A stretch of 50,683 nucleotides of DNA from Actinomycetota bacterium (GTDB lineage Bacteria; Actinomycetota; Acidimicrobiia; Spongiisociales; ZC4RG35): positions 40,252 to 90,934 of the forward strand of contig DAIOGO010000001.1 in assembly GCA_036745195.1 (NCBI GenBank), written 5' to 3'. Position 1 is the first letter of the stretch. Every line of letters begins with the position of its first letter. The translations under genes and the position numbers were made by a program. Of this stretch, positions 2,481-33,822 are shown one piece after another. A model generated the notes under the pieces. It saw only the letters and a program-made list of their open reading frames with translations, did no database searches and was not told where the DNA came from.

Positions 2481-3295
2481 TCCGGATCGTCACCGACTCG
2501 TCTAGCGATCTGCCACCCGCTCTGGCCGAATCTCAGTCGATCACGATCGTCCCTCTCACCATTCGGTTTGGTGACACGGAGTACACCGATCGAGCCGACC
2601 TCTCGTCCGCGGAGTTCTGGGCCACGCTGGGGACGTCGCCTCATCTCCCCGAGACGGCCGCCCCCTCGGCCGGTGCCTTCGCCTCCACCTATCGACGACT
2701 GGCGGAAGAGGGCGCCGAGGGCATCGTGGCGGTGACACTGTCGTCCCGCATGTCCGCCACCTACCAGGCAGCCGTGCTCGGCGCCGAGGCAGAACCGTCC
2801 ATCCCCGTGCGAGTGATCGACAGCGCCACGGTCTCGATGGGGCTGGGGTTGATAGCCCTGGCCGCCGCCCGGGGAGCAGGCCAGGGCCTGTCGCTCGAGA
2901 CGTTGGCGGAGGCGGCGGCGAGGGACGCCCGGAGGGCCCGGTTGCTCGCCGCCCTCGACACCCTGGAGATGTTGCGACGGGGTGGCCGGATCGGTGGAGC
3001 CCAGGCGCTGCTCGGAGGCCTCCTCGACATCAAGCCGCTCATCACGGTCGAAGATGGACTGGTGAGCGCGGCAGGCAAGGTCCGGACCCGGTCGAAGGCG
3101 GTCGACGCGCTGGTGGCCTCCCTGGCCGGCCGAACCCCGGAGTCGATCGCCCTTCTCCACACCAACCCTGACGACGTCGGTCCGCTCCACGATCGATTGG
3201 CGGCGCTGGGGGTCCCGATCATGCCCTGCCTGCTCGGGGCAGTGGTCGGAACCCATACCGGCGCGGGCACCCTCGGCGTGGCCTACCTCGACTGA
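2477..3295 (+). CDS. degV: DegV-family fatty-acid-binding protein
   Basis: The N-terminus VIRIVTDSSSDLP is typical of DegV, and the length (~272 aa) fits the family. GTG 2477 overlaps the GNAT stop (GTGA). The ORF-track start at 2141 lies inside the GNAT gene and was discarded. Confidence 0.85.
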   Translation: MIRIVTDSSSDLPPALAESQSITIVPLTIRFGDTEYTDRADLSSAEFWATLGTSPHLPETAAPSAGAFASTYRRLAEEGAEGIVAVTLSSRMSATYQAAVLGAEAEPSIPVRVIDSATVSMGLGLIALAAARGAGQGLSLETLAEAAARDARRARLLAALDTLEMLRRGGRIGGAQALLGGLLDIKPLITVEDGLVSAAGKVRTRSKAVDALVASLAGRTPESIALLHTNPDDVGPLHDRLAALGVPIMPCLLGAVVGTHTGAGTLGVAYLD

Positions 3296-3296
3296 C

Positions 3297-4595
3297 ATGC
3301 CTCCCCCACTGCCAGATCGTTATCGCCTCGAAGTCCGGCTCGAACGGGACGAGGATATCGAGCAGTGGCTGGGAACCGACCTGTCACTCGATCGTCCGGT
3401 GCTGCTCAGGATGCTCGGCCCCGAGACCGAGCCCACCCGCCGCCATCGCTTCCTGGAGGCGGTGCGGGCGGCCTCCTCGATCAATCATGCCCATCTCGTC
3501 CAGTTGTTCACCGCCGACGAGGTGGTGAATGGCGCTTACGCAGTGTCGGAGTGGCCGGGCGGATCGACCCTGGCCGACCGGCTGGCATCGGGCGAGACCA
3601 TGGCCGTGGACGACTTCCTCCCCAGCGCCGCCGGTCTCGCCTCGGCACTGGCTGCCCTCCATTCGAACGGGATCGTCCACGGCGCCATCGACACCTCGGC
3701 CATCACGTACTCGCTCGCCCACCCCGCCAAGCTGGGAGGGTTGGGACGCAAGCCCCGGGTGGCCACGGTCGCCGACGACGTCAGGGCGCTGGTTTCGACC
3801 CTCGAGGAGGGACTGACCGGATACAAACCGGGGGGACCTGCCCCATCGGAGATCGTCGACGGCATCCATCCCCGAGTCGACGACATCCTCGACCGCGGCT
3901 GGAAGGGGCTTCTGACCGCCCAGGCCCTCTCCGAAGAGTTGACGGCGGCACCTTCCATCCCAAAACGCCGCATCGACTCGCCGTCGTGGTCCCGGCGACT
4001 TTTGCTGGCGGCCGGCGGGCTCGCCCTGCTGGCGGTGGCACTGGTTGCCGCCGGACAGCTCCTCGCCGGAGGAGAAGGCGGGGGGATCGCGGTGCCGATC
4101 GACCCGCGTTCGGCGCCACCCGCCACCGCCCCGATCGCCTCGACCACCATCGTCACCGCGCCGACCGGATTGACCCTCGCTGCACCGCCCGAGGTCGTGA
4201 CGGTGGACCCGTTCGGGAGCAACGAGGAGAACGACCAGAACCTGCCCGCCCTTACGGACGGTGATTCCGCCTCGAGCTGGCGGTCGGAGCGTTACCGGGA
4301 CCAACTCTCGCTGATCAAGCCCGGACTGGGCCTGGGGTTCAGGGCGGTGGGCACTCCGCTCGAACTCGTGATCGAAGGCATCACAACCGGGCTCTCCTAC
4401 GAGATCGGCTGGTCTCCCTCGCCCAGCATCGATTCCCTGGAGCACGTCGGGCGGGGAGTCAACCGCGCCGGAACGCTGGCGATCCAGTTGCCCCGCCGCC
4501 AGGACGGCTGGTGGATCCTGTGGGTGACCGAGATCCCGGCCGACGGAGCAGGAGAACGGTCGTTCGAGGTGGCAGAAGTACGCTTCGGGTCGTGA
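3297..4595 (+). CDS. Membrane-anchored pseudokinase with extracytoplasmic sugar-binding-like domain (equivalent to the C-terminal part of mycobacterial MviN/Rv3910, no flippase domain)
   Basis: Kinase-like fold (YRLEVRL..., EWPGGSTLADRL) with degenerate catalytic motifs: VLLRML replaces VAIK, IVHGAIDTSAI replaces HRDxKxxN, KLGGLG replaces DFG. One TM segment (LLLAAGGLALLAVALVAAGQLLA). The C-terminal domain has ALTDGDSASSWRSERY, which is discoidin/CBM-like. It sits directly upstream of the ECF sigma gene, as mviN does in Mycobacterium. Confidence 0.75.
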   Translation: MPPPLPDRYRLEVRLERDEDIEQWLGTDLSLDRPVLLRMLGPETEPTRRHRFLEAVRAASSINHAHLVQLFTADEVVNGAYAVSEWPGGSTLADRLASGETMAVDDFLPSAAGLASALAALHSNGIVHGAIDTSAITYSLAHPAKLGGLGRKPRVATVADDVRALVSTLEEGLTGYKPGGPAPSEIVDGIHPRVDDILDRGWKGLLTAQALSEELTAAPSIPKRRIDSPSWSRRLLLAAGGLALLAVALVAAGQLLAGGEGGGIAVPIDPRSAPPATAPIASTTIVTAPTGLTLAAPPEVVTVDPFGSNEENDQNLPALTDGDSASSWRSERYRDQLSLIKPGLGLGFRAVGTPLELVIEGITTGLSYEIGWSPSPSIDSLEHVGRGVNRAGTLAIQLPRRQDGWWILWVTEIPADGAGERSFEVAEVRFGS

Positions 4596-4624
4596 CTTCA
4601 GGTCGAAACCCACGGCTCGCCGAG

Positions 4625-5185
4625 ATGGATGACATCGGTCTCGTCCAACTGGTGGCGGGTGGCGACCGGAGTGCGTTCTCCGCTCTGATGGAACGTCATC
4701 AGGACCTGGTTTTCGGGGTTGCGCTCCGGCTGATGGGAAACCGGGAAGCCGCCCTCGACGCCGTCCAGGAGACGTTCATAACGCTGTTTCGCAAGGCCGA
4801 TCGGTTTCGGGCCGAGGCAGCCTTCACGACCTGGCTCTACCGGGTCACCACCAACACCTGTTACGACCTGCTCCGCAAGCAGCGGCGCCGTCATGCCGAT
4901 CCCCTGCCCGAACATCACGACCCCGTCGACACCCGGACCGCCGACCAGTTCACGTCCGTCGAACTCCGCCCGGCGGTCGAGAGCGCCCTCGCCTCGATCC
5001 CGCCGGAATTCCGCGCCGCCGTCATACTCTCGGATCTCGAAGGCCTCTCGATGGAGGAGATCTCCCGGGTGCTGGATATCCCGATCGGTACCGCCAAGTC
5101 GAGGCTGTTCCGGGGGCGAAGACTCCTGGCCGAACGACTCGGGAACCTTCTCGACACCAACCGACCTCTAACCGACGATGCATGA
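4625..5185 (+). CDS. sigM: ECF (group IV) RNA polymerase sigma factor, SigM-like by position
   Basis: Region 2 (LVFGVALRLMGNREAALDAVQETFITLF) and region 4 HTH (LSMEEISRVLDIPIGTAKSRLFRGRRLL). ATG 4625 was chosen; in-frame GTG 4592 (GTGA overlap with the upstream stop) is an alternative. The symbol rests on synteny only. Confidence 0.85.
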   Translation: MDDIGLVQLVAGGDRSAFSALMERHQDLVFGVALRLMGNREAALDAVQETFITLFRKADRFRAEAAFTTWLYRVTTNTCYDLLRKQRRRHADPLPEHHDPVDTRTADQFTSVELRPAVESALASIPPEFRAAVILSDLEGLSMEEISRVLDIPIGTAKSRLFRGRRLLAERLGNLLDTNRPLTDDA

Positions 5186-5930
5186 CCACGATCTCGACCT
5201 CGTAGCCGATCTCAGCATCGGTCTCGACCCCGACGGGGCTGCCCGGCGATTGGTCGACTCGTGTGCCGAGTGCGCCGCCGAGTTCACCCGCCAGGTGGCG
5301 GTTCGTGACCTGCTGGGCGGGATGCCGGCGGCGGTCATGACCGATGACGAACGACGGAGTCTGCGGGCGGCGGTGGGCAAGGAGTTGGACCGGGGCGCCT
5401 CTGTCCTGGCCTTCCCCCGGCGATGGGCGACGATCGGTTCGGTGGCGGCCGGCGTGCTCGTGCTGGTAGGGGTGGGGGGCGTCCTCAGCCAGTTGGGTGG
5501 GGGCAACGGTGCCGCCGAGTTCGACACGATCGCCAGTGCCCTGGGAGGAGCGCAAACCGAGACCACCGCAGCTCCCAGCGCCGACCAGAGCTTCACTGCC
5601 GCCGAGATGGCGCCGGCCGGGGTCGAGCCGATCCGCTTGGTCGACTTCGGCGCGTTGGACCTGCAGGCGTTCGTGGCCCGTCTAGCCGAGCAGGCCGACC
5701 TCGACGAGAAGGCCCGAGCCGGTGGCGACACCACCGGGACCACCACCACCTCCTCGATCACGCCCGGCGACCCGCAGCAGCCGGCCTGTCTGGATCGTGT
5801 CGCCGCACCGGGCCAGACGGTGGTGACGGCCGTCGTCGACGGAACGCCGGTGGTTGCCTACCTGCCGCTGGGTGAGGCAACCTTCGTCGCCTTCCGGATG
5901 TCGGACTGCGAGCCCTTCCCCCTCGAGTGA
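5178..5930 (+). CDS. Anti-sigma factor (single-pass membrane protein) cognate to the upstream ECF sigma
   Basis: The start overlaps the sigma gene stop by 8 nt (ATGCATGA). The N-terminal cytoplasmic segment has CAEC, followed by one TM (WATIGSVAAGVLVLVGVGGVL) and an extracytoplasmic C-terminal domain. The position is equivalent to anti-SigM. Confidence 0.7.
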   Translation: MHDHDLDLVADLSIGLDPDGAARRLVDSCAECAAEFTRQVAVRDLLGGMPAAVMTDDERRSLRAAVGKELDRGASVLAFPRRWATIGSVAAGVLVLVGVGGVLSQLGGGNGAAEFDTIASALGGAQTETTAAPSADQSFTAAEMAPAGVEPIRLVDFGALDLQAFVARLAEQADLDEKARAGGDTTGTTTTSSITPGDPQQPACLDRVAAPGQTVVTAVVDGTPVVAYLPLGEATFVAFRMSDCEPFPLE

Positions 5931-5934
5931 TCCC

Positions 5935-6195
5935 GTCCTGCGCCATGCGTCCTGCGCCATGCGTCCTGCGCCATGCGTCCTGCGCCATGCGCCATGCGTC
6001 CTGCGCCATGCGTCCTGCGCCATGCGCCATGCGCCCTGGGCGGTTCAAGGTTCAAAGTACAAAGTTCAAGGTCTTCACCTTCAACCTTCAACGTTCTACC
6101 TTCTACTTTCAACCTTCCTCGTTCGTCGTTCCGCGTTCATCGTTCATCGTTCATCGTTGATCGTTCATCGTCTTCCTTCTTCGGTCTCGTCTCGG
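5935..6195. repeat. Composite heptamer array, locus B: four consecutive blocks of 7-bp words (about 36 units)
   Basis: 5935-6039 holds 15 units of GTCCTGC/GCCATGC. After a 2-nt slip, 6042-6076 reads GGTTCAA GGTTCAA AGTACAA AGTTCAA GGTCTTC. 6077-6118 holds ACCTTCA-type x6, and 6119-6174 holds TCGTTCA-type x8, decaying to CCTTCTT/CGGTCTC. Every position was read directly. The period of 7 excludes coding. Confidence 0.9.
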
Positions 6196-6211
6196 TATCC
6201 TTCGAGCGCCA

Positions 6212-6490
6212 ATGCCCGAGTTCGCCGCCAAGCTCGCCGACTTCCTGGAGTCGATCGCTGTCAAGGCGCGCGCCCTCACCGTCGATCGAGCCAATCGGGC
6301 GATCGTCATCGCCGGCCTGGGGCTTCCGATCACGGTGCTCGCCCTGATGGCGGTTGTGTTCCTCTTCATGACGATCCACGGCGCCCTGGCGGTCCCTCTC
6401 GGTGATGCCGCCGCCTTCGGCATCCTGACGGGACTATTCGGACTGGCAGGGGCGTTGGTCTGGAGCAAGAGAAGCAAGGAATCATCGTGA
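6212..6490 (+). CDS. Small two-TM membrane protein of unknown function, translationally coupled to trxB
   Basis: 92-aa ORF with strong third-position GC bias, an amphipathic N-terminus, two hydrophobic helices and a basic tail (KRSKESS). Its stop overlaps the trxB GTG start (GTGA at 6487-6490). No obvious SD upstream. Confidence 0.65.
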
Positions 6491-7404
6491 TCGAAGACGT
6501 CATCATCATCGGGAGCGGCCCGGCCGGATATACCGCCGCCCTCTACGCCGCCAGGGCGAACCTCAGACCCCTCGTGTTCGAAGGAACGGTGTCGGGTGGT
6601 CAACTCATGATCACCACCGACGTCGAGAACTACCCGGGTTTTCCGGACGGGATCCTCGGGCCGGAACTGATGGAGAGGTTCCGCAAGCAGGCGGAACGGT
6701 TCGACGCCCGCCTGGTCACGACCGACGTGACCAGGGTCGATTTCAGCCAGGAGCCCTTCCGGGTCTGGGCCGGCGCCGACGAGTATCAGGCCAGGGCGGT
6801 CATCGTCGCCACCGGGGCAAGTGCCATCTGGCTCGGTGTTCCCGGAGAGGAACGCCTCACTGGTCGGGGTGTCTCCGCCTGCGCCACCTGCGATGGCTTC
6901 TTCTTCCGGGACCGGGAGTTGGTCGTGGTGGGGGGAGGCGACTCGGCGATGGAGGAGGCCACATTCCTCACCAAGTTCGCCTCCAAGGTGACGATCGTCC
7001 ACCGCCGGGACGAATTCCGCGCCTCCAAGATCATGGCCGAGCGAGCGCTGGCCAACCCCAAGATGGAAGTGATATGGAATGCCACTGTCTCCGAGATCCT
7101 CGGCGACGGGGAGGTGACCGGGGTGACCCTCACCGACACAGTGGATGGATCGACCCGTGACTTCCCAACCAACGGTGTGTTCGTGGCGATCGGACACCGA
7201 CCAAACACCGAGATCTTCGCCGGGCAGATCGACCTCGACGACAAGGGGTATGTGGTGTTGCCAGGGCGGGGAACCGAGACCTCGGTGGCGGGTGTGTTCG
7301 CCGCCGGCGACGTCGCCGACTCGCGGTACCGTCAGGCAATCACCGCCGCCGGGAGCGGATGTCAGGCGGCGCTGGATGCCGGACACCACCTCGCAGGAAT
7401 GTAA
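6487..7404 (+). CDS. trxB: Thioredoxin-disulfide reductase
   Basis: FAD motif [12 protein letters not shown], redox-active [14 protein letters not shown] motif [12 protein letters not shown], and C-terminal GDVAD...[10 protein letters not shown]. Confidence 0.95.
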
Positions 7405-7460
7405 GCGCCGCCGGCGGGGTTCACAACCGTTGGAACACAACACGACCCAAGGAGCAGCAG

Positions 7461-7784
7461 TTGTCAGCGACCATCACCCTCACCGATTCGAACTTCGCCC
7501 AGGCCATCTCCGGGAGCCAGCCCGTCTTGGTCGACTTCTGGGCCGAGTGGTGCGGGCCTTGCCGTATGGTCGCCCCGGTGCTCGATGAGCTCGCCGTCGA
7601 CAAAGGCGACCAGCTGACCATCGCCAAGCTCAACATCGACGAGAACCCGCAGACGCCCGCCAACTTCGACGTGATGAGCATTCCCACCCTCATCCTCTTC
7701 AAGGACGGAGTCGAGAAGAAGCGCATCATCGGGGCCCGCCCCAAGCACCAGATCGAGGCAGAGCTTTCGGAGTTCCTCATCTGA
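7461..7784 (+). CDS. trxA: Thioredoxin
   Basis: WCGPC active site in a 107-aa product. TTG start at 7461 sits 6 nt downstream of AAGGAG (7449-7454). The upstream part of ORF 7359.. overlaps the trxB 3' end and was discarded. Confidence 0.9.
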   Translation: MSATITLTDSNFAQAISGSQPVLVDFWAEWCGPCRMVAPVLDELAVDKGDQLTIAKLNIDENPQTPANFDVMSIPTLILFKDGVEKKRIIGARPKHQIEAELSEFLI

Positions 7785-8774
7785 TTGTGCTTCGATAGAG
7801 CTGTGCGGCTCTATCGATTGGACGATTCTGGCGAGCCGGTCCGGGACATCCAGGACCGGCTCGTCGCGTTGGGGTACGAAGTCACCGATCCCACCGGCGA
7901 GTTCGGTCCGTCGACCCTCGCCGCCGTCACCACCTTTCAGCGCGATCGAGGGCTCGCAGTGGACGGCATCGTCGGTCCCGACACCTGGCGAGTCCTGTAC
8001 GAGGCCGGCTACCGCCTAGGCGACCGGCTGCTGTTCCTACGCCGGCCCATGTTTCGGGGAGACGATGTCGGCGAGCTCCAGGCACGGCTCAACAACCTCG
8101 GGTTCGATGTCGGAAAACCGGATGGGATCTACGGCCCCAACACCGCTCGAGCAGTGGGCGCCTTTCAGCGGGACCGGGGCTTGCCCGAGGACGGGATCGC
8201 CGGGCCCGAGGTCATCACCGAGTTGCGGCTGGTCACCCGGGGGGCGATCGGGACCGGGCGCGAAGCGGTTCGCGAGAAGGAGTGGCTGCGGTCGCTCCCC
8301 GCCACATCCGTCGGGACCAGGGTCTACTTCGATCCGGCCGGGGGCTCCCCGCAGGAGGCAGCGGCCGCCTGGGCGGCCTGTAGCGCCGCCGCCCTCGCCT
8401 TTCAGGATCGTGGTGGCCTTCCCCTCATCTCTCGATCGGCCGACATCGTCACCCCCGAACGGGTCAGGGCCCGTCGTGCCAACCGGCTGGGGGCCGAACT
8501 GATCGTCGGCTTCCAGCGGCCCGATCAGACCGGCGATTGCGTCTATTTCTTCGAGACGCCCACCACCCGCAGCGAGGCAGGGGTCCGGCTGGCCTCGGCC
8601 ATCGCCGCCCGGCTCGGCATCCCGGCAGAAGGTCGCGCCACCCCCCTCCTCCGCGAAACCAGGGCGGTGGCGGTGATCATCTCGCTCGCCGATTTGGGGG
8701 AACCCACCGGGGTCCCGACGGTCGACGCCATTGACGACTTCTTCCGCGGGCTTCAGACGAAGAACAGGCGATAG
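7785..8774 (+). CDS. cwlM: CwlM-like protein: two PG_binding_1 repeats plus amidase_3-like domain with degenerate active site
   Basis: Two peptidoglycan-binding repeats (FQRDRGLAVDGIVGPDTW and FQRDRGLPEDGIAGPEV), then an amidase_3-like domain starting RVYFDPAGGS where active amidases have DPGHGG. Its position after trxB-trxA matches Mycobacterium. The start is uncertain (TTG 7785 or GTG 7803). The 3' end overlaps convergent parB by 22 nt. Confidence 0.8.
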   Translation: MCFDRAVRLYRLDDSGEPVRDIQDRLVALGYEVTDPTGEFGPSTLAAVTTFQRDRGLAVDGIVGPDTWRVLYEAGYRLGDRLLFLRRPMFRGDDVGELQARLNNLGFDVGKPDGIYGPNTARAVGAFQRDRGLPEDGIAGPEVITELRLVTRGAIGTGREAVREKEWLRSLPATSVGTRVYFDPAGGSPQEAAAAWAACSAAALAFQDRGGLPLISRSADIVTPERVRARRANRLGAELIVGFQRPDQTGDCVYFFETPTTRSEAGVRLASAIAARLGIPAEGRATPLLRETRAVAVIISLADLGEPTGVPTVDAIDDFFRGLQTKNRR

Positions 8775-9613
8775 AGCCTCTCCAGTTCCTCCAGCGACTT
8801 GAACGGGATTTCCACCCTCCCCTTCTTGCTCTTGTACCGGATCGACACCTTGGTCCCGAATCGATCCGCCAACCGCTGCTCGAGTTCGATGATCTCCACC
8901 GGTCGCACCTCGCGCAGCACCGCCGGCTTGTCGGGTGGGGCCTCCTTGCGGATTCTGACGGCTTCTTCGACCTGACGGACGCTCCAGCCCTCCTCCGCCG
9001 CTTTGGCGGCGATGTGTTCGGCGTACTTGCGGTCCCCGATCGCCAGCAGGGCCCGGGCGTGGCCGACGGACAACTCGCCGCGCTCCAGCATCCCCTGGAT
9101 CGATGCCGGAAGCTGCAACAGCCGGATCATGTTGGTGATGGCCGAGCGGCTCTTTCCGACTTGCGCCCCCACCTCCTCGTGGGTCATGCCAAAATCTTCC
9201 AGGAGCTGCTGGTAGGCGGCTGCCTCCTCCAGCGGACTGAGGTCCTCCCGCTGGACGTTCTCGATCAACGCTTCGGTCAACGATCCCCGATTGTCGACGG
9301 TGCGAATGACAGCCGGGACGGTCTCCAGCCCCAACCGTTTCGCCGCCCTCACCCGCCGCTCCCCGGCGATGAGCACGAATCCCCCATCGTCCTCCCGCAT
9401 CACCGCCACCGGCTGGAGGATCCCGACCGCCTGGATCGATTCGGCGAGCGAGGCGATCGCCTCGTCCGAGAACCGGGCCCGCGGCTGGTTCGGGTTGGGT
9501 TTGATCGAGTCGACCCTGACCTCGGCGAAATCGAGCCGATCCGGTTCCGAATGCACCGGAATCAGGGCATCGAGTCCACGACCCAGCCCACTTCTTCGTG
9601 TCGTCATGTTCAA
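8753..9613 (-). CDS. parB: Chromosome partitioning protein ParB
   Basis: GLGRGLDALIP N-terminus, ParB box GERRVRAAKRLG, HTH (GMTHEEVGAQVGKSRSAITNMIRLL). Overlaps the parA stop by 4 nt. Confidence 0.95.
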   Translation of the reverse strand: MNMTTRRSGLGRGLDALIPVHSEPDRLDFAEVRVDSIKPNPNQPRARFSDEAIASLAESIQAVGILQPVAVMREDDGGFVLIAGERRVRAAKRLGLETVPAVIRTVDNRGSLTEALIENVQREDLSPLEEAAAYQQLLEDFGMTHEEVGAQVGKSRSAITNMIRLLQLPASIQGMLERGELSVGHARALLAIGDRKYAEHIAAKAAEEGWSVRQVEEAVRIRKEAPPDKPAVLREVRPVEIIELEQRLADRFGTKVSIRYKSKKGRVEIPFKSLEELERLYRLFFV

Positions 9614-10386
9614 CCCTCTCGTCCGTGCCGGCGACGAAACTCGCGCGCCAGCTCCCGATAGGCAATGGCTCCCCGACTCATGTTGTCGAACGTCTCGATG
9701 GGCTCGCCGAAGGATGGGGCCTCCGAGAGACGCACCGAGCGCGGAATCACCGTCCGGTAGGCCGCATCACCAAAGTGCCGCCGGACCTGTTCCATGACGT
9801 CCTTGGCCAGTTTGGTTCGAGCGTCGAACATCGTGAGGACCGCGCCCCCGATCTCCAGGTTCGGATTGAGAGAATTCTTGATCAGGTCGATGTTGCGCAT
9901 CAACTGAGACAGCCCTTCCAGTGCGTAGTACTCGCACTGGATCGGGATCATCACCTCATCGGCGGCGGCGAGTGCGTTGACCGTCAACAGCCCCAGGGAC
10001 GGGGGACAGTCGACCACGATGAATTCGTAGTCCTCGAGCACCGGCTTGAGCGCCATTCGCAGCCGCTGTTCTCGGGAGAACACCGACACGAGCTCGATTT
10101 CCGCTCCGGCCAGGTCGATCGTCGCCGGGACGAGGAAGAGATCACGCACCGAGGTTGGCTCGATCGCGTCCTCCATCGCCAACTCCTTCAAAAGTACGTC
10201 ATAGATCGATCGAGTGATGTTCTTGCGCTCGACCCCGACCCCGGATGAGGCGTTCCCCTGCGGGTCGAGGTCGACCAGCAACACCCGTTCGCCCTGCAGG
10301 GCAAGGCCGGCCGACAGATTGATCGCGGTGGTGGATTTGCCGACCCCACCCTTCTGATTTGTAATGGTGACCACGGTGGCGGTCAT
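9610..10386 (-). CDS. parA: Chromosome partitioning ATPase ParA/Soj
   Basis: Deviant Walker A NQKGGVGKSTTAINL, and Walker B FIVVDCPPSLG. Confidence 0.95.
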   Translation of the reverse strand: MTATVVTITNQKGGVGKSTTAINLSAGLALQGERVLLVDLDPQGNASSGVGVERKNITRSIYDVLLKELAMEDAIEPTSVRDLFLVPATIDLAGAEIELVSVFSREQRLRMALKPVLEDYEFIVVDCPPSLGLLTVNALAAADEVMIPIQCEYYALEGLSQLMRNIDLIKNSLNPNLEIGGAVLTMFDARTKLAKDVMEQVRRHFGDAAYRTVIPRSVRLSEAPSFGEPIETFDNMSRGAIAYRELAREFRRRHGREG

Positions 10387-10402
10387 TGATACCTCTTCTC
10401 TC

Positions 10403-10942
10403 CTAGCGGTCCATCATAAGGACCCAGGACACCGGTTCAAGGATCCCCACCCCGACCTCCCTGGTCGAGAATCCCGGGACCGACAATTCTGCCACCCGTG
10501 AGCCGAGAACCACTCCATACCCACCGGGTGCGACCAGTCGATGCAGAGATTGGAGAACCCGGCCGGGTGCGGCGAGACCGCGAGCCACCACCACGTCGAA
10601 GATGCCCTCGAGATCATTGACATCTCCCTGCATCACGGTCACGTTGGGCAATCCCAACACCCGGGTGGCACGCTTCAACAGCCGGCAACGCGCCCCGGAT
10701 CGGTCAAACAACGTCACCGTCGCGCTCGGATAGAGGATCGCCAATGGAATCCCGGGCAACCCTACCCCGGACCCGAGATCGGCGATCGAGGAGGGTCGGA
10801 GTGGATGCCAACATTCGGCCACCGCCAGCGAGTCTGCGAGGTGCCGATTGTCGAGACGATCGGCTTCCTCCGGTCCCAACCCGCCTGCCGCTGCAGCTTC
10901 TGAGGTCAACCAGTCCCCGTACTGGCCGATCGCACTAGCCAT
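10403..10942 (-). CDS. rsmG: 16S rRNA (guanine527-N7)-methyltransferase RsmG (GidB)
   Basis: HLADSL, SAM motif IADLGSGVGLPGIPLAI, position between jag and parA. ATG 10942 has a GGAGGG SD 9 nt upstream. The ORF-track GTG at 11002 (no SD) is the alternative and would fit the usual N-terminal length better. Confidence 0.85.
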   Translation of the reverse strand: MASAIGQYGDWLTSEAAAAGGLGPEEADRLDNRHLADSLAVAECWHPLRPSSIADLGSGVGLPGIPLAILYPSATVTLFDRSGARCRLLKRATRVLGLPNVTVMQGDVNDLEGIFDVVVARGLAAPGRVLQSLHRLVAPGGYGVVLGSRVAELSVPGFSTREVGVGILEPVSWVLMMDR

Positions 10943-11028
10943 CTCGGTCGTCCCTCCTAGCCGGAGGATCATCTGTGTGCTGAGCGGAAACAGTTCGTCC
11001 ACAGTGGAGAGGGTAGACAGGAGTTACA

Positions 11029-11044
11029 CGTTTCACGTGAAACT
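11029..11044. promoter_or_regulatory. parS centromere site 1
   Basis: CGTTTCACGTGAAACT contains the perfect palindromic 14-mer GTTTCACGTGAAAC of the parS consensus tGTTTCACGTGAAACa. Confidence 0.9.
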
Positions 11045-11081
11045 TCTGGCGGTGGGTCCTGGCCGCGCGTTCGGGGGTCAC

Positions 11082-11097
11082 CGTTTCACGTGAAACT
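11082..11097. promoter_or_regulatory. parS centromere site 2
   Basis: Identical 16-mer CGTTTCACGTGAAACT, 53 bp from site 1, in the jag-rsmG intergenic region upstream of the rsmG-parA-parB operon. Confidence 0.9.
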
Positions 11098-11140
11098 CCG
11101 ATCCGTGGAGGACCGCAACCACCAGTTGGCTGCGCAAGCA

Positions 11141-11168
11141 GAAGGGGCGCCCGTCGGGGCGCCCCTTC
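11141..11168 (-). terminator. GC-rich hairpin downstream of jag (candidate terminator)
   Basis: GAAGGGGCGCCC-gtcg-GGGCGCCCCTTC forms a perfect 12-bp stem 23 nt after the jag stop. A T-tract (TTGTTT) is present only on the plus-strand side, so intrinsic termination for the minus-strand transcript is uncertain. Confidence 0.45.
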
Positions 11169-11191
11169 TTGTTTGAGTCTCGAGCGAACCG

Positions 11192-12106
11192 TCACTCCTC
11201 TTCGGAGCCGGCGCTCTCCTCCTCCGCCGGCGCTTCTACCGCCTCCGCCGCAGCCGCCACCGGAGCAATCGCCGAGATCACCACGTATCTGCGCGGTGAT
11301 TCGCCCTCCGAGTACGACCGGACGCCTTCGTGGCTCCCGACGGCGTCATGGATCACCTTGCGATCCGCCGCACTCATCGGCTCCAATACGACCTCTCCGC
11401 CCTCGCTCAACACCTGGGCGATCAACTGATTGGCGTAGATGCCCAGCGCTTGCCGCCGACGGTCGGCATGACCAGCGATGTCGAGTCTGACCCTGGCGCC
11501 GGCGTCGGTCCGGCGCAGAATGACGGTCTTGGTGATCTCGTGGATGGCCTCGATGACCGAACCGCGGGGTCCGACCATCGCCTCGGTCTGATCACCCACC
11601 ACGTTTGCGACGATCGTCTCCTCCTCGATCGTGACTTCGACGGTGCCGTCCAAGCCGAACGCCCCCACCAGGCCCTCGAGAAACTCGCGAACCACATCTG
11701 CCTGTTCCTGGGTAGGCGCCGCCTGCTCCATTGATCTCTCCCTCCGGTCATCACGCCGCCCACGCTCTTCCGGGCGCGGCTGAGCTGCACGTTCACGTTG
11801 TTGTCTGGGTTGCTCCCGCCGGTTGCTCTGCGGTCGCTGGTTCTGCTGGCGCGATTGGCGGGGCGCAACCTCGGTCTGCCCATCCGATCCGGATTCGCCG
11901 CCCTTCTTTCGCCGCCGGCGCTTTCGACCGGACGGTCGAGGCTTGATCCGCACGACGGCATCTTTGCCCCCGATACCGAGAAAGCCCTTCTCGCCTTCGC
12001 TCACGACCTCGACGATTGCCTGGTCGACATTCTCCAGACCGAGCTCTTTGAGCCCGAATTCGACGGCCACCGCCACCGTCTTGCCGCTGACTTCCACCCA
12101 TTCCAC
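11192..12106 (-). CDS. jag: Jag/KhpB-type RNA-binding protein (Jag_N, KH, R3H domains)
   Basis: The N-terminus MEWVEVSGKTVAVAVEFGLKELG is Jag_N. A basic low-complexity linker is followed by a KH-like region and R3H (LEPMSAADRKVIHDAV...VRSYSEGESPRRYVVI). Position after yidC. Confidence 0.9.
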   Translation of the reverse strand: MEWVEVSGKTVAVAVEFGLKELGLENVDQAIVEVVSEGEKGFLGIGGKDAVVRIKPRPSGRKRRRRKKGGESGSDGQTEVAPRQSRQQNQRPQSNRREQPRQQRERAAQPRPEERGRRDDRRERSMEQAAPTQEQADVVREFLEGLVGAFGLDGTVEVTIEEETIVANVVGDQTEAMVGPRGSVIEAIHEITKTVILRRTDAGARVRLDIAGHADRRRQALGIYANQLIAQVLSEGGEVVLEPMSAADRKVIHDAVGSHEGVRSYSEGESPRRYVVISAIAPVAAAAEAVEAPAEEESAGSEEE

Positions 12107-12109
12107 GGG

Positions 12110-12997
12110 TTATCTCCTCTTCCGCCGCTGCTGCTTCTTGGAGGACACCGGGTGGGGCTTCTTCGAGCCCTCCACCACCGGTGTCGTATCCTTCCCCTTT
12201 TCGACCGCCGCCATGCCGGGAGCGGGATGAGGCCGCCCGTCGATGGCGAAGATCGCGAACTGCTGGCCGAGACGGAACAAGTTCGACGTCGTCCAGTAGA
12301 GAACCAGGCCGGCAGGGAAGTTCCACGACACGAACCCCAGCATCACCGGCATGAATCGGGTGATGGCCTGTTGTGTCTGCTGCTGCTGGCGTTGCTGCGG
12401 TGTGAGATCCTGAGTGCTGGCATTGGAGCCCCGCTGGGCGTGCCACATCTGGAAGTACTGGGTGGCGATCATGAGAACGAGCATCAGCACGTACGGAATG
12501 GCGGTCACCACTGCCGACCTGATCCCGTTGCTCATGTTGAGGGAGAGGTCCATTCCCAGAAAACGTTGCGGGCCACCCCGGACTGCCGCCAGCAGGGCGG
12601 ATTCCGCCGGCAGGAACACGGCCTCGACGTCCTTTCCGGTGGAGATCTCAGAGACATTCTGGAGGACACGGAACAGCGCGAACCAGATCGGCATCTGCAC
12701 CAGAATCGGTAGCAGGCACCCCCCGGGAGTGGCTCCTGCCTCGCGCTGTGCCCGCATCAGCTCCTTCTGCATCTTCTCGGGTTCGTCCTTGAGTTCCTTC
12801 TGGATGCGTTTGATCTCCGGCGCCACTGCCTGAAAGGCCCTGGTCGAGCGGGTCTGCTTCAACGTCAAGGGGAACAGGAGGATGTTGATGGTGACGGTCA
12901 GCAGGATGATGGCCAACCCAAACGATGGTATGAGGTCGTAATAGAACGACAACAACCATCCAATCCCTTGTTCGATGTAGCGGAATAGCTGGCCCAC
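12110..12997 (-). CDS. yidC: Membrane protein insertase YidC (short actinobacterial form)
   Basis: Multi-TM 295-aa protein with conserved LLFPLTLKQTRS, MQKLQPE-like region (IKRIQKELKDEPEKMQKELMRA) and GCLPILVQMPIWFALF. Confidence 0.95.
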   Translation of the reverse strand: MGQLFRYIEQGIGWLLSFYYDLIPSFGLAIILLTVTINILLFPLTLKQTRSTRAFQAVAPEIKRIQKELKDEPEKMQKELMRAQREAGATPGGCLLPILVQMPIWFALFRVLQNVSEISTGKDVEAVFLPAESALLAAVRGGPQRFLGMDLSLNMSNGIRSAVVTAIPYVLMLVLMIATQYFQMWHAQRGSNASTQDLTPQQRQQQQTQQAITRFMPVMLGFVSWNFPAGLVLYWTTSNLFRLGQQFAIFAIDGRPHPAPGMAAVEKGKDTTPVVEGSKKPHPVSSKKQQRRKRR

Positions 12998-13001
12998 GAG
13001 T

Positions 13002-13256
13002 TCATGACCCCCATCGGGTAGGTACCGGATCGAAACCCGACGATCCGAATGGATGACATCTTCCCAGCCGGCGGATGGCGAGGATCCCGCCCCTGACGAT
13101 CCCGAAGCGACCCAACGCCTCGATCGCGTAGGACGAGCAGGAAGGGGAGAACCGGCAATTCCTTCCCAGCAGGGGACTGAGGACGAGTTGATAGAGCCGA
13201 ATCGGGACGGCGGCGATAACGCCCGTCAACCGCTTCTTCTCTCGATCCGTCGTCAT
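13002..13256 (-). CDS. yidD: Membrane protein insertion efficiency factor YidD
   Basis: YQLVLSPLLGRNCRFSPSCSSYAIEAL...GRCHPF signature. 84 aa. Overlaps the rnpA stop by 4 nt. Confidence 0.9.
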   Translation of the reverse strand: MTTDREKKRLTGVIAAVPIRLYQLVLSPLLGRNCRFSPSCSSYAIEALGRFGIVRGGILAIRRLGRCHPFGSSGFDPVPTRWGS

Positions 13257-13579
13257 CTTCCTGCTCCCTGGGCTCCGTAGGCCACCGCCGTCCGCAACCC
13301 TTCTACCATTTCCTGGAAGGCCACCTCGACCGCTCCAGGGCGGGCAATCACCACATAATCGAACCCGACCGCCAGTTCCAAGGCCGCCAGAGCGTGGCGG
13401 ATTCGGCGTCTGGCCCGGTTGCGGGCGACTGCACCACCTATTCGCCGACCGACGACCAGCCCAACCCGAACCGCCTGGAGGTCGTTGGGGTTGATGATGA
13501 TCGTCAGCGGTCCCCGATTGCGGCGGACACCGGAATCGAGGACCTTGGAGAAAGCTTGGCGGCCGCTGAGCGGAAGCAC
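13253..13579 (-). CDS. rnpA: Ribonuclease P protein component
   Basis: 108-aa basic protein with RVGLVVGRRIGGAVARNRARRRIR (RNR motif), located between rpmH and yidD. GTG start at 13579. Confidence 0.9.
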   Translation of the reverse strand: MLPLSGRQAFSKVLDSGVRRNRGPLTIIINPNDLQAVRVGLVVGRRIGGAVARNRARRRIRHALAALELAVGFDYVVIARPGAVEVAFQEMVEGLRTAVAYGAQGAGR

Positions 13580-13589
13580 CCGACCGCGG

Positions 13590-13724
13590 TCAGGCGGCGA
13601 GACGCTTGCGACCCTTGTCGCGCCGGGACTTCACGATGGCTCGTCCCGAGCGGGTCTGCATGCGGTGCCGAAAGCCGTGCTTGCGCTTGCGGCGTCGGAC
13701 TTTTGGCTGATAGGTACGTTTCAT
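13590..13724 (-). CDS. rpmH: 50S ribosomal protein L34
   Basis: Not in the ORF track (too short). The reverse complement of 13590-13724 translates to [44 protein letters not shown] (44 aa plus TGA), the canonical L34 sequence. Confidence 0.95.
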
Positions 13725-14095
13725 GAAGAGATCCAGATCTGGGGATTGACCGATGAAGGCTACGGACTCGGGTTCCTCTTTGTCAAAGCCTGAGCAGTCC
13801 GCGACAAATTGGGCAAGGACGCGAAAAGTCGATTATCGCCCTGAGCCGCCATTCTCCCGCTCGCCGGTCCATCGTCCTCGGCCTCCAGGTTCTGCTGAGC
13901 AGGCATTTCGCGCCCGATGACCCCCGCGGAACCGGGCTCCAAGTCAGGATTCCGCGCTCTTGACCGGCCCGCTCCGGTTGTTTTACGGTGCCCTCCACGA
14001 CCACTGCCCAGGTTGACACTTCCCTCCTGGCCCGGCGGTTGGACGCGCCCGTCGGTTCACCGGCGAGCGCCGGACGAGAACGGTTTTTCATGGCG

Positions 14096-14127
14096 TTGTC
14101 CACACTTGTGGATGGACATGTGGACAA
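14096..14127. promoter_or_regulatory. Cluster of three DnaA boxes immediately upstream of dnaA
   Basis: TTGTCCACA (14096-14104), TGTGGATGG (14107-14115, rc CCATCCACA) and TGTGGACAA (14119-14127, rc TTGTCCACA). Two are perfect matches to the actinobacterial DnaA-box consensus TTGTCCACA. The cluster lies 28 nt before the dnaA start region. Confidence 0.85.
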
Positions 14128-14154
14128 CGCGGCGGGTGGAGAGAGAGGAGACTC

Positions 14155-15534
14155 TTGGTGGTGGACGCGCAACACTTCGAAGGGGTCGATGCATCGGATC
14201 AATTCCAACGAACCCTCCGGGACAGCGCCAATCCCGCCACCTGGCAGACCTGGTTCTCGCGGCTCCGGATCGAGCGCCGGCCCGACGGGTACACGGTGGT
14301 CGCCCCCTCGGACTTCCACCTCCATTGGATCCTCGACAAACACCAGCAGTCGATCCAGGCAGCGTTTTCGACTGCCTACGGTCCTGATGCCGTCCTCCGC
14401 TTCGAGGCGGCCCTCGACGATCTCGAGATCGACGATCCCGATGTGGTCCGCAGCCCGGTCGATCCGGAGAAGGGTCACCAACCGGAGCTCCCGATGCAGC
14501 CGGAGCAACTGGCCCGCCTCATCAAGAAATACCGGTTCGAGTCTTTCGTCGTCGGTCAGTCGAATCGGTTCGCGCACGCGGCGGCGATGGCGGTGGGGGA
14601 GACGCCCGGCACCCGCTACAACCCGCTCTTCATCTACGGAGGCGCCGGGCTCGGCAAAACCCACCTGCTCCACGCCATCGGGCATCTCGCCCTCGAGCTC
14701 TACCCGGACCTCTCGGTCCGATACGTGTCCTCCGAGACCTTCTTCACCGAGTTCATCGACGGGATCCGCAAGAAGCGGATGGACGACTTCAAACAGCGGT
14801 ACCGAACCACCGACATCCTCCTCCTCGACGACATCCAGTTCTTCGAAGGCAAGGAACAGATGCTCGAGGAGTTCTTCCACACCTTCAACACCCTCTACGA
14901 GACGGGCAAGCAACTCGTGATCAGCTCGGACCGGGCGCCCCGCCACCTCTCCACACTGGAGGATCGGCTCAGGAGCCGCTTCGAGTGGGGGCTGATCACC
15001 GACATTCAGCCACCCGATGTCGAGACTCGCCTCGCCATCCTGAAGAGGAATGCCGAGTTCTGTCCTACCCCGGTGCCGGCCGACGTCCTCCATCACATCG
15101 CCACCCTCGTCTCGGACAACATCCGCGAGCTGGAGGGGACCCTCACCAGGGTCACGGCCTTTGCCTCGCTCACGGGTCAACACGTGACCCTCGACCTGGC
15201 CGAAACCGTGCTTCAGGATCTGCTCCCCGGCCAGTCCAAGCGCACGATCGACGGGCCCCGCATCCTCGACGAGGCTGCCTCCGACTTCGGCTTTGCGATC
15301 GAAGAGCTGCGCGGGCCCTCGCGCCGTCAGCCGCTGGTCCTCAGCCGTCAGATCGCCATGTACCTGTGCCGGGAGCTGACCGACCTGTCGCTGCCGCGGA
15401 TCGGGGACCTCTTCGGTGGTCGCGATCACACCACCGTGCTCCACGGTGTCGAGAAGATCCGCAAGCTCATGCAGACCGACCGGGCGGTCTATGACAAGGT
15501 CACCGAGCTCTCCCAACGGCTGAGGAAAACGTGA
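14155..15534 (+). CDS. dnaA: Chromosomal replication initiator protein DnaA
   Basis: AAA+ Walker A GGAGLGKTHLL, Walker B LLLDDIQF, sensor and box VII motifs, C-terminal DNA-binding signature IGDLFGGRDHTTVLHG. Start is TTG 14155 or in-frame GTG 14158/14161, after GAGAGGAG (14143-14150). Confidence 0.95.
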   Translation: MVVDAQHFEGVDASDQFQRTLRDSANPATWQTWFSRLRIERRPDGYTVVAPSDFHLHWILDKHQQSIQAAFSTAYGPDAVLRFEAALDDLEIDDPDVVRSPVDPEKGHQPELPMQPEQLARLIKKYRFESFVVGQSNRFAHAAAMAVGETPGTRYNPLFIYGGAGLGKTHLLHAIGHLALELYPDLSVRYVSSETFFTEFIDGIRKKRMDDFKQRYRTTDILLLDDIQFFEGKEQMLEEFFHTFNTLYETGKQLVISSDRAPRHLSTLEDRLRSRFEWGLITDIQPPDVETRLAILKRNAEFCPTPVPADVLHHIATLVSDNIRELEGTLTRVTAFASLTGQHVTLDLAETVLQDLLPGQSKRTIDGPRILDEAASDFGFAIEELRGPSRRQPLVLSRQIAMYLCRELTDLSLPRIGDLFGGRDHTTVLHGVEKIRKLMQTDRAVYDKVTELSQRLRKT

Positions 15535-15746
15535 GTAACTCCTGTGGATCATCCGGGAGTTACCCCCAGTCGCCGGCACCCCCCTGCCGGTGCCCTGTGA
15601 ACATCCTCCCGATCCTCCACAGCCTCGCCTCCGAGAATCCGGCGTAATTTCAACTCCCGAAGCGAATCGTCCACAATCCACACCACCTACTACTGCTACT
15701 TCTGATTTGATAGATAAGAAAGAAAGAAGAAGAAGGAAGGACAACT
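15535..15746. promoter_or_regulatory. Candidate oriC (dnaA-dnaN intergenic region with DnaA boxes and AT-rich unwinding tract)
   Basis: DnaA-box-like 9-mers share the core TCCACA: TGTGGATCA (15543-15551), TCCTCCACA (15613-15621), TCGTCCACA (15667-15675), CAATCCACA (15674-15682). They are followed by a strikingly AT/purine-rich tract, TCTGATTTGATAGATAAGAAAGAAAGAAGAAGAAGGAAGG (15701-15740). The location matches oriC in Mycobacterium and Streptomyces. Confidence 0.55.
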
Positions 15747-16829
15747 GTGCGTATCAGAGCCGAGCGTGACGATCTGGGGGATGTGTTCGCCCGCGCCAAC
15801 CGTGCAGTCGGTCCACGTGCTGCTCTCCCCGTGCTGCAAGGGTTGTTGTGCGAGGTGTCGGGTGGAACCCTTCAGGTCACCGGCACCGATCTCGAGATGA
15901 CCGTCCGCACCCAACTCGGAGTCGAGGTTCTGCAGGAGGGACGAGCCGTGATCCCCGGGAAACTCCTGGAGCAGGCGGTCCGGCGTATGCCCAAGGGCCC
16001 GGTCACGATCGGAGCCGAAGAGGGTGAGGTGGAGATCCTCGGGAAGGGCCCCCGTTTTGGGCTCAGGCTTCTCTCCGCCGACGACTTCCCGTCGGTCGAC
16101 ACCACCCCGGCGGGCGGCACCGAGGTCGACGGCGACCGGTTGGCCCAGGCGGTGTCCCAGGTGGCGGTAGCCGCTTCGAGCGACGGGGCTCGACCCATCA
16201 TCACCGGCGTCTTGTTCGAATCCACCGAAGCCGGCGTCCGCCTGGTGGCCACCGACTCATACCGGTTGGCGGTGTGTGACCTGGAAGGACTCGGGATCGA
16301 GGGTTCTGGCCTCATCCCGGCCCGGGGGCTGAAGGAGTTGCCGCGGACCATCGGTTCGAGCAAGGTGAGGGTCGATCTGTCCGGGCGAGAGGGGGTGTTC
16401 GGATCCGATCGGGGCACGCTCCGGTTGAGGATGATCGAGGGAGCTTTCCCCAAGTACCGGACCCTCCTCCCCGAGTCCTACCCCAATCAGGTCATCGTCT
16501 CGAAGGAGTCCCTCCTCGAGGCATTGGGTCGGGTGGCGCTGGTCGCCGAGGATCACATCCCGGTTCGGCTCCGCATTTCCGAGGGAGGGGTGGAGATCGC
16601 CGTGAGCCGGCAGGACGTCGGTGGCGAGACCGAACACCTCAGTGGTGAGTACAAGGGCGAGGCCGACGAGGTGACGATCGCCTTCAATCCTCGCTATCTG
16701 GCCGACGGGGTGACCGCGGTGAACAGCGAACACGTCCGCATCCAGGTGATCGACAGCCTCAAACCGAGTGTCATCGATTCGCTCGACGACCCGGCATTTC
16801 TCTACCTGCTCATGCCGGTTCGCATCTGA
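15747..16829 (+). CDS. dnaN: DNA polymerase III beta sliding clamp
   Basis: 360-aa ORF with typical N-terminus (LPVLQGLLCEVSGGTLQVTGTDLEM) and C-terminus (YLLMPVRI). GTG start after GGAAGGA. Confidence 0.95.
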   Translation: MRIRAERDDLGDVFARANRAVGPRAALPVLQGLLCEVSGGTLQVTGTDLEMTVRTQLGVEVLQEGRAVIPGKLLEQAVRRMPKGPVTIGAEEGEVEILGKGPRFGLRLLSADDFPSVDTTPAGGTEVDGDRLAQAVSQVAVAASSDGARPIITGVLFESTEAGVRLVATDSYRLAVCDLEGLGIEGSGLIPARGLKELPRTIGSSKVRVDLSGREGVFGSDRGTLRLRMIEGAFPKYRTLLPESYPNQVIVSKESLLEALGRVALVAEDHIPVRLRISEGGVEIAVSRQDVGGETEHLSGEYKGEADEVTIAFNPRYLADGVTAVNSEHVRIQVIDSLKPSVIDSLDDPAFLYLLMPVRI

Positions 16830-18232: not shown

Positions 18233-18234
18233 GC

Positions 18235-18263
18235 TTTTACCCGGAGCCCGAAACGGCTAGAAT
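18235..18263 (+). promoter_or_regulatory. Candidate sigma-70-type promoter for gyrB-gyrA
   Basis: TTTTAC (18235-18240), 17-bp spacer, TAGAAT (18258-18263), about 160 nt upstream of the gyrB GTG. Pattern match only. Confidence 0.35.
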
Positions 18264-20335: not shown

Positions 20336-20345
20336 TCGGAGCGCC

Positions 20346-33800: not shown

Positions 33801-33822
33801 CCCGATGGCCGCCCGGCCGAGT

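Follow-up and report, generated by a model that had tools for sequence, protein, structure and literature searches.

The stretch of DNA analysed here (50,683 nt from an uncultured lineage of Acidimicrobiia, hereafter the window) contains, between a putative anti-sigma gene and the trxB operon, an intergenic array of contiguous 7-nt units at 5935-6195 (copy w1), which is one member of a family of composite heptanucleotide arrays. Every copy is a chain of such arrays, (E GTCGCGA)-A CATGCGY-(G ATCGGGC)-B RGTTCAA-C CCTTSAA-D CGTTSAT-(F CTTCCTT), built around a B-C core of about 70-90 nt that forms an imperfect palindrome. Judged by their common block order, their junctions and the partly non-periodic core, the copies are homologous, and sequence comparison places the orthologous copies at the same site since before their lineages split. 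The blocks grow and shrink by whole 7-nt units, sometimes by 14 nt, and whole composites duplicate in tandem. With moderate confidence, we regard the family as lineage-specific and dispersed, resized by 7-nt slippage and tolerated at gene 3' ends and between operons, where it would act at most as a spacer or an incidental termination zone.

The array had been noticed in a preliminary description made from the sequence alone, which counted about 36 units. Direct reading, by cutting the sequence into units, confirms it and yields 37 contiguous 7-nt units that fill 5935-6195 on the plus strand as the ordered blocks A (GYCMTGC), B (RGTTCAA), C (ACCTTCA) and D (TCGTTCA). Block A (5935-6039) comprises 15 units of GTCCTGC/GCCATGC, often alternating so as to give a 14-nt higher-order unit and ending in GCCCTGG; the word TGCG occurs in it 14 times at a spacing of exactly 7 nt. 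The A-to-B junction is a 2-nt slip (GC), after which 22 further units span 6042-6195: five RGTTCAA units of the GGTTCAA type in block B (6042-6076), the final one degenerate (GGTCTTC), six units of the ACCTTCA type in block C (6077-6118), eight pyrimidine-rich units of the TCGTTCA type in block D (6119-6174), which is nearly unpaired on folding, and a decaying, F-like tail of CCTTCTT, CGGTCTC and GTCTCGG (6175-6195). The block boundaries, slip and unit types given previously are upheld by this reading and by Tandem Repeats Finder, which reports arrays of period 7, 14, 21 and 35 at these coordinates. Blocks B and C together are the conserved imperfect-palindrome core of w1, and the sequence model of the core matches at 6035-6116.

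The signal is specific to a period of 7. In a lag scan of all 50,683 nt, 87 sub-windows of 42 nt reached 34 or more self-matches at lag 7, whereas no sub-window did so at lags 3-6 or 8-12; a finer scan with a shorter window returned 7 tracts (296 nt) at period 7 and none at periods 5, 6, 8, 9 or 10. Period 7 is the sole short period that yields tracts within the 50.7 kb. The run of 7-nt units placed head to tail is longer than expected by chance, as in the heptanucleotide tandem-repeat arrays of other bacteria. The composition of the array is likewise unusual, as the preliminary description had remarked: the units of blocks B-D carry 3/7 G+C in a window of 66% G+C overall, and 6044-6123 (G+C 0.40) is the second-lowest 80-nt interval of the sequence. 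The lowest (0.39) lies in the dnaA-dnaN gap. On the forward strand of the array, C outnumbers G and T outnumbers A. Similarly, the array was said to begin just after a stop codon and to end shortly before a start codon, and the measured distances are 4 nt past the upstream TGA (5928-5930) and 16 nt ahead of the next ATG (6212).

Three loci in the window carry the element. The same block order, inverted, had been reported at 47301-47596, and related words at 575-670; both observations hold, the first for a larger region (47255-47596, minus strand) that contains two tandem composite copies, w2a and w2b, and the second as a reduced copy, w3, at 574-675 (GTCGCGA x4 plus a B-C core). In w2a, block A (47506-47596) consists of about 13 GCCATGC/GTCATGC units and lies 16 nt downstream of the 3' end of a bacterial small signal recognition particle (SRP) RNA gene (47613-47712, minus strand, 64 bits); no terminator hairpin with a T-run is found 3' of that gene. 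Blocks B (47465-47499) and C (47427-47462) form arms of 23 nt that are 78% complementary within 47427-47499, and block D' (47400-47427) contains CGCTGAT and GCCGATG, the reverse complement of a G-type unit. Copy w2b opens with a lone degenerate A unit (47375-47398, GCGCCATACGCGC), followed by blocks B (47334-47371, GTTCGAA units) and C (47300-47331), which together occupy 47300-47371, and by block D' (47255-47295), which overlaps the 3' end of a convergent ubiE-like methyltransferase gene; all of these blocks lie on the minus strand. Copy w3, on the plus strand in the convergent gap between a pilT-like gene and a deacetylase gene, begins with block E (574-605, GTCGCGA x4) 5 nt past the stop codon of the pilT-like gene and continues into a reduced B-C core (613-675) that scores 42 bits against the family model. 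All three loci start 4-16 nt beyond a stop codon or an RNA 3' end. Just two convergent gaps in the window reach 60 nt, and both hold arrays.

A composite pattern of 45-59 nt spanning blocks B and C gave three matches in the window versus zero expected, and a covariance model of the core built from sequence only found exactly four copies (42-77 bits). Each of these four also matches the model on the opposite strand (16-27 bits), and the core is therefore an imperfect palindrome.

Homologs of the anti-sigma protein with 71-100% identity were found on metagenome contigs (numbered here with the prefix L), and close homologs of the window's methyltransferase carry the label Acidimicrobiia; the array-bearing relatives probably belong to this class. 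At the orthologous site the array is retained in lineages whose anti-sigma proteins are 100, 79, 73 and 71% identical, with 15, 4, 3 and 14 A units and 8, about 2, at least 4 and 9-10 D units, respectively. Contig L119 (71%) is fully syntenic, and its gap reads A x14, G (ATCGGGC/ATCGGCT) x4, B, C, D x9-10, the only G block at this site; the array of L122 (79%) is an abbreviated one, and that of L123 (73%) consists of A x3 and blocks B, C and D in this order. Junction sequences are common to the orthologs and missing from the paralogs, e.g. CCTGGGCGGTTCAAGGTTCAAAGTACAA in the window and L123. The insertion is therefore older than the lineage split and has evolved in place. In the distant syntenic relative L126 (36% anti-sigma identity) the site is a 49-nt gap with a small GC hairpin, and no period-7 tract was found in 16 kb of that contig.

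Beyond the orthologous site, the pilT-deacetylase gap of L119 holds three further composites, and a metagenome scan with a B..C..D pattern returned two loci only, L124 between divergent genes and L125 between convergent genes. The block order (E)-A-G-B-C-D-(F) holds in 12 of 12 copies (w1, w2a, w2b and w3 in the window, four in L119 designated a-d, and one each in L122, L123, L124 and L125), which lie in five contexts unrelated to one another, namely the anti-sigma/trxB, SRP RNA/methyltransferase and pilT/deacetylase gaps and the sites on the two metagenome contigs. The earlier proposal of a dispersed ordered element rather than a local microsatellite is borne out by these copies, at five or more unrelated sites; relatives share the ordered blocks at the orthologous site and at four or more others. 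In terms of density, there are three intergenic loci in the 50.7-kb window and two in the 20.7 kb of L119, plus L124 and L125. The B-C cores are 65-95% identical among copies, the closest pairs being local tandem duplicates, and the tandem duplicates of whole composites reach 0.88 (w2a/w2b) and 0.95 (L119b/c) identity. At the second window locus, a relative with 91% identity has A and D and lacks B-C, and one with 79% identity has no array there and a different heptamer array (GGGACTC) elsewhere. No match to the B-C model was obtained in the distant relatives or in loci of other phyla. In L119 the pilT-deacetylase gap (4496-5550; 1-30 in L120) has been enlarged to about 1 kb by super-repeats, of which three stand in tandem, each consisting of a heptamer composite and a second GC-rich hairpin repeat of ~100 nt (GAGCCGGCGCAGCCGGGAGGGGGGCAC, 3 copies) that does not occur in the window; the gene caller placed a 312-amino-acid (aa) open reading frame (ORF) on these super-repeats.

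Such dispersal could potentially reflect a non-autonomous mobile element, similar to MITEs (miniature inverted-repeat transposable elements) or repetitive extragenic palindromic (REP) sequences, that is spread by a transposase or a REP-associated tyrosine transposase (RAYT)-type enzyme encoded elsewhere, the heptamer expansions being secondary. We regard this as doubtful. It would account for the same composite at five or more unrelated sites, for a palindromic core that matches its model on both strands, for the copy that replaced a gene's 3' end together with its stop codon, and for the breaking of assemblies at the arrays. However, the copies have no terminal inverted repeats, their ends being unrelated arrays (A versus D), and pairing is confined to the internal B/C arms of the second locus, which excludes a MITE proper; no target-site duplication was seen at the flanks relative to the empty site in L126. 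Near-identical dispersed copies are missing (cores are 65-90% identical, only local tandem duplicates being closer), the orthologous copies are old and evolve in place, and no transposase lies beside any copy among the called genes. Searches of annotated plasmids and phages by blastn, with the low-complexity filter on, gave no match, and scans of viral sequences gave no family member, only analogous heptamer hairpins.

Variation in length proceeds by whole units between species and strains, as in other heptanucleotide arrays. Contigs L133 (3040-3155) and L134 (3040-3148), which derive from the same species and two sequencing runs, differ by exactly one GATGAGC unit in a D-type block, and thus provide direct evidence of unit-wise length polymorphism. 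For the window's own species, five metagenome assemblies are identical to the window over the covered parts of the second locus. An assembly artefact is ruled out by an independent assembly, L129, which spans the complete second locus and is identical, and by L121, which matches the first 65 nt of w1. The short-read contigs of relatives repeatedly end inside the arrays, as expected of a multi-copy repeat.

Slippage of this kind could also serve phase variation, as it does with the 7-bp repeats upstream of hmw1A in Haemophilus and TTTTGAT upstream of ctxAB. A contingency locus, raised as one possible role in the preliminary description, would shift the spacing upstream of the membrane-protein/trxB/trxA operon and thereby switch its expression. 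The array does end 16 nt short of the start codon and immediately upstream of TATCCT, a conserved -10-like hexamer, and a one-unit polymorphism does exist, in a relative and at another locus. Still, the same element occupies convergent gaps, where no promoter can be regulated, the array lies upstream of the putative promoter elements and not between them, and the genes concerned are housekeeping genes. The unit numbers are moreover identical in assemblies from five metagenome samples, over the covered parts of the second locus, which disfavours the proposal. We consider this role very improbable.

The element had been described as non-coding, and this assessment is sustained. A period of 7 leaves no stable reading frame, and the gap at the orthologous site measures 281, 325 or 164 nt, with differences of 44, 117 and 161 nt, most of which are not divisible by 3. 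All three forward frames are nearly free of stop codons, which accounts for the spurious ORFs placed on the arrays (5854-6405, 5927-6160 and 5973-6347 in the window, 10779-11015 in L119); the reverse frames are full of TGA and TAA. A protein search with six concatenated array translations retrieved just three unrelated CATGCGC-array ORFs from other organisms (P0146-P0148). A protein-coding gene was accordingly rejected, on the scrambled frame, the ortholog length differences and the want of real homologs of the translations. A clustered regularly interspaced short palindromic repeat (CRISPR) array, with repeats of 23-50 nt and unique spacers, was likewise rejected, in agreement with the preliminary description: the units are 7 nt long, contiguous and without spacers.

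The folding of the copies does not point to a structured RNA. Some copies have folding z-scores of -2 to -3.7, and these values are alike on both strands and absent for several copies; the RNAalifold consensus has an energy of -0.51 kcal/mol without covariation, and Rfam returned nothing, whether searched at the gathering threshold or as loosely as E <= 1. A structured RNA was rejected on these grounds, the B-C hairpin of some copies notwithstanding. The reading that the array encodes a small repetitive protein or a structured non-coding RNA is already largely refuted and hardly credible: the nearly open forward frames and the z-scores of some copies would favour it, but there is neither conserved structure nor covariation, the z-scores do not distinguish the strands, the ortholog lengths and the period are incompatible with a frame, and the translations match only the unrelated array ORFs mentioned above.

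The claim that each block is nearly self-complementary in many registers was not upheld either. Block A folds no better than shuffled sequence (z -1.0 to +2.2) and was rejected as a long hairpin, and 5880-6260 contains no inverted repeat of at least 10 nt. Only blocks B and C constitute an imperfect inverted pair, with a C-C mismatch in every unit of the w1 hairpin. Pairing of the G and D blocks via G-U pairs was found in a single copy (L124) and is not general.

The hairpin and the composition of the adjacent blocks bring up termination. As judged from the sequence, the B-C hairpin and ~100 nt of C/U-rich unstructured RNA from blocks C, D and F could load Rho and end transcripts, and a termination or insulation module maintained by selection would then form a boundary between the sigma/anti-sigma and trxB operons and hold convergent genes apart. 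We hold this to be possible, though unlikely. In its favour, a YC dinucleotide is present in almost every unit of blocks C, D and F, 6076-6155 has the top C>G skew (0.58) and the top pyrimidine content (0.76) among the 80-nt intervals of the window, and the D blocks are essentially unpaired on folding. The composition of a Rho utilisation (rut) site (~80 nt, C-rich, G-poor and unstructured) thus fits blocks C-D of w1, and fits less well at the second locus, where the skew is much weaker. Further support comes from position: the starts of all three window loci shortly past a stop codon or RNA 3' end, the occupation of both larger convergent gaps, the retention of the site across relatives, the small GC hairpin at the same place in the array-less L126, and the perfect hairpins with heptamer-array stems just past stop codons in Gemmatimonadota. 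Conversely, a canonical intrinsic terminator was not found: a consensus scan detected no hairpin with a T-run inside either array (nor any sigma-70 consensus promoter), so that the bidirectional terminator proposed in the preliminary description is not seen in its intrinsic form. The hairpin is weak, mismatched in every unit of w1 and without covariation, copy L124 lies between divergent genes, and a crude census of 83 GC-rich loci in other phyla revealed no preference for convergent over divergent gaps. The argument that the element is always co-oriented with its upstream gene was dropped because orientation is geometrically forced in convergent and divergent gaps, which leaves strand specificity testable at one informative locus only.

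The regular 7-nt spacing might alternatively reflect a binding array for a DNA- or RNA-binding protein with one heptad per subunit, by analogy with omega (ParB) of plasmid pSM19035, whose dimers bind contiguous 7-bp heptads in mixed orientation at the parS/operator sites (PMC9499535). The likeness lies on the DNA side only: contiguous 7-bp units in direct and inverted orientation, of which at least 4 are needed for function in pSM19035, so that functional heptad arrays are established as such (PMC9499535), compared with 3-15 contiguous heptads per block here. By inspection, CA(W) also occupies a fixed position in all unit types. However, pSM19035 has one heptad sequence in 7-10 units, on a plasmid and beside the gene of the binder (PMC9499535), whereas the present element has five or more unit types and up to 15 units per block and is chromosomal and dispersed. 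At least five heptad sequences per element, copy numbers that vary freely between orthologs, and flanking genes that encode no ribbon-helix-helix protein or other binder (the flanking genes being the extent of this search) make such an array improbable, and the many heptamer arrays of unrelated sequence across phyla argue for a general mutational cause.

Under the explanation favoured here, that of a slippage-resized and tolerated family, the size changes would come from slipped-strand mispairing during replication, and the family would be mainly the product of such slippage acting on an old hairpin-like intergenic element. It may persist where extra DNA harms little, i.e. past stop codons or RNA 3' ends and wherever a gap divides two transcription units, and in the cell it would act as a spacer at the 3' ends of transcripts. 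Stop codons are present in all frames of the reverse strand, and the forward strand, being C/U-rich, G-poor and mostly unstructured, may incidentally aid Rho-type termination.

Several observations weigh against this explanation. Retention of the orthologous site down to 71% protein identity could reflect selection, and so could the extreme composition of the C-D part. The second locus shows no length variation in five assemblies of the window's own species, which may come from related samples, and this suggests more stability than expected of a freely slipping microsatellite. A purely mutational origin leaves both the conserved order at unrelated sites and the arrival there unexplained, and the fixed CA(W), again by inspection, hints at constraint. 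The whole sample moreover amounts to five sites in about 90 kb of related DNA. Some room, if not much, is left for a modular cis-acting device under selection, with a hairpin core and expandable heptad arrays, that functions as a tunable Rho-type terminator or insulator or as the landing pad of a heptad reader. It would then stand, for Acidimicrobiia, in a class of heptamer-array hairpins that lie just past stop codons across bacteria and phages, with examples in Gemmatimonadota and IMG/VR contigs, and the 7-nt period would then be the molecular ruler of its reader, not of the replicative polymerase.

Heptanucleotide arrays have been noticed in bacteria since 1990; to our knowledge, neither a reason for the 7-nt unit nor any function of these arrays has been established. 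The preliminary description did not recognise the element as part of a described repeat family, yet its unit structure, intergenic dispersal and unit-wise variation, taken with the literature on heptanucleotide arrays, make it a member of the known class of intergenic heptanucleotide tandem repeats (PMC4679880, PMC4692102). In that class, as summarised in the two latter sources from Mrazek et al. 2007, heptanucleotides are the commonest long simple sequence repeats (SSRs), polymerase slippage is the proposed cause, and large GC-rich genomes of non-pathogens, including Actinobacteria, are the typical hosts. The present family resembles these long SSRs in its intergenic tandem 7-nt units and many loci per genome; it differs in that different arrays are chained in a fixed order and inherited as a unit across loci, whereas the long SSRs are treated in these summaries as single-motif, statistical entities. 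With the short tandemly repeated repetitive (STRR) sequences of the cyanobacteria Calothrix, Anabaena and Nostoc (cited in PMC4692102), it shares dispersed intergenic heptamers and lineage-specific motifs, but phylum and motifs differ. STRR loci are usually described with one motif per array and no conserved multi-block order. STRR1-3 proper, which belong to heterocystous cyanobacteria, were rejected as an identification, the units here being CATGCGY, RGTTCAA, CCTTCAA and CGTTCAT and the host probably a member of Acidimicrobiia.

The repeats of type GGGNATC that Rehm et al. (2015, PMC4692102) describe in Xanthomonas and Nostoc are likewise intergenic, mostly 0-50 nt from the upstream stop codon, occur as single arrays or inverted pairs, and keep their position between species while length and sequence vary. 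The G-block unit GGGCATC (L119 10862-10891; L125 1213-1226) fits this type, which is strongly enriched in Xanthomonas (PMC4692102). Unlike the G-rich, quadruplex-forming GGGNATC arrays, the present element is composite and mostly C/T-rich on the forward strand, and its window copies lack regular G-tracts. The TAACTGA repeats of Beggiatoaceae and the 'assemblages of heptamer repeats' (MacGregor 2015, PMC4679880) are also intergenic; mixed heptamers adjoin each other in Microcystis and Bacteroidetes, Elizabethkingia has nearly identical multi-heptamer intergenic regions at two loci, and contigs end inside the repeats (PMC4679880). These sets consist of 2-6 units mostly directly upstream of start codons, in other taxa, and no fixed order or palindromic core is described for them in that paper. 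The window loci begin, as given above, beyond stop codons or an RNA 3' end. In Streptococcus pneumoniae, the dispersed intergenic BOX elements consist of boxA, a variable number of boxB copies and boxC in fixed order. They share the modular order with the present family and differ in their modules of 45-59 nt, their stable fold and their unrelated sequence and host.

A scan of genome contigs with (CMTGCGN)x4 returned at least 118 loci in many phyla, including, among the matches listed, Streptomyces, Gemmatimonadota, Acidobacteriota, Chloroflexota, Planctomycetota, Brocadiaceae and Acidimicrobiales. A single heptamer dominating across phyla was rejected: all eight CMTGCGN types occur among these matches, at least 2-31 loci each. 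Many of the listed loci are themselves multi-block arrays, e.g. with 3-5 chained units in Vicinamibacterales (L018 6670-6853), Spongiibacteraceae (L083 1024-1150), Verrucomicrobiaceae (L113 6115-6248) and Lysobacterales (L026), and chaining of arrays is therefore found outside this lineage as well; none of the listed loci of other phyla contains the B, D or G motif. Contigs of Gemmatimonadota carry near-perfect hairpins with stems (ACCTGCG)n … (GCAGGTC)n right after stop codons (L003 5084-5153, L009 5349-5444, L027 1968-2057 and L066 near 7227), a design that recurs at several loci of one metagenome-assembled genome. A phage-like contig (L138, IMG/VR UViG_3300033144_004679) has ATTGACG/ATTGAAG/ATTGAAA arrays after almost every stop codon within 2595-10384. 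Hairpins with arms (RGGTTCA)n/(YTGAACC)n occur in phage-like sequences (L138; L139 2649-2723) just before the next ribosome-binding site; their words GGTTCA/TGAACC are those of blocks B and C, and the genome that carries them is unrelated, with a GC content of about 50%.

What is new in the present family is the conserved multi-block order around a palindromic B-C core, inherited at unrelated loci, of which no description was found. It is a tidy example, in an uncultured lineage, of an old unsolved phenomenon and not a new kind of system. The family does allow conserved features (block order, core and a location past stop codons) to be told apart from a drifting one (the number of units) and from missing ones (covariation in the RNA, repeats at the termini). 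Should the order prove functionally constrained, it would point to a heptad reader or a termination device in GC-rich bacteria lacking classic terminators. In practical terms, the arrays break short-read assemblies of Acidimicrobiia, and they give rise to spurious ORF calls and false C-terminal extensions of real genes. The ubiE-like methyltransferase (46628-47305, plus strand) has 225 aa versus 209-210 aa in most homologs, and the heptamer array (47255-47305) supplies the codons of its last ~15 residues (…GDQASALGHQPSGDVG) as well as its stop codon; the protein of the 91%-identity relative has 220 aa and a different array-encoded tail.

Copy w1 is flanked upstream by the putative anti-sigma gene (5178-5930, plus strand), presumed to be the partner of the extracytoplasmic function (ECF) sigma factor encoded ahead of it (4511-5185), and downstream by the gene of a 92-aa membrane protein (6212-6490, plus strand), the first of the trxB-trxA group, after which thioredoxin reductase and thioredoxin are encoded. 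The -10-like hexamer TATCCT (6196-6201, plus strand) lies outside the repeat, marks its 3' limit and stands 10 nt ahead of the membrane-protein ATG. It is kept at the equivalent site in L119 and L122 and reads TAACCT in the array-less gap of L126 (10799-10847), which suggests a putative near-leaderless promoter for the trxB group at the 3' edge of the array.

The region 8753-22784, especially 15535-15746, is the neighbourhood of the chromosomal origin, where the minus strand carries parB, parA, gidB, jag, yidC, rnpA and rpmH and the plus strand dnaA, dnaN, recF, gyrB and gyrA. At each of the three window loci, the arrays have their C-rich strand as the lagging one (n=3). Elsewhere in the window, a divergent tRNA-Ile/tRNA-Ala pair lies outside any rRNA operon (33550-33802), and three tRNA-Ser genes (gga, cga, tga) stand in tandem at 49072-49463.

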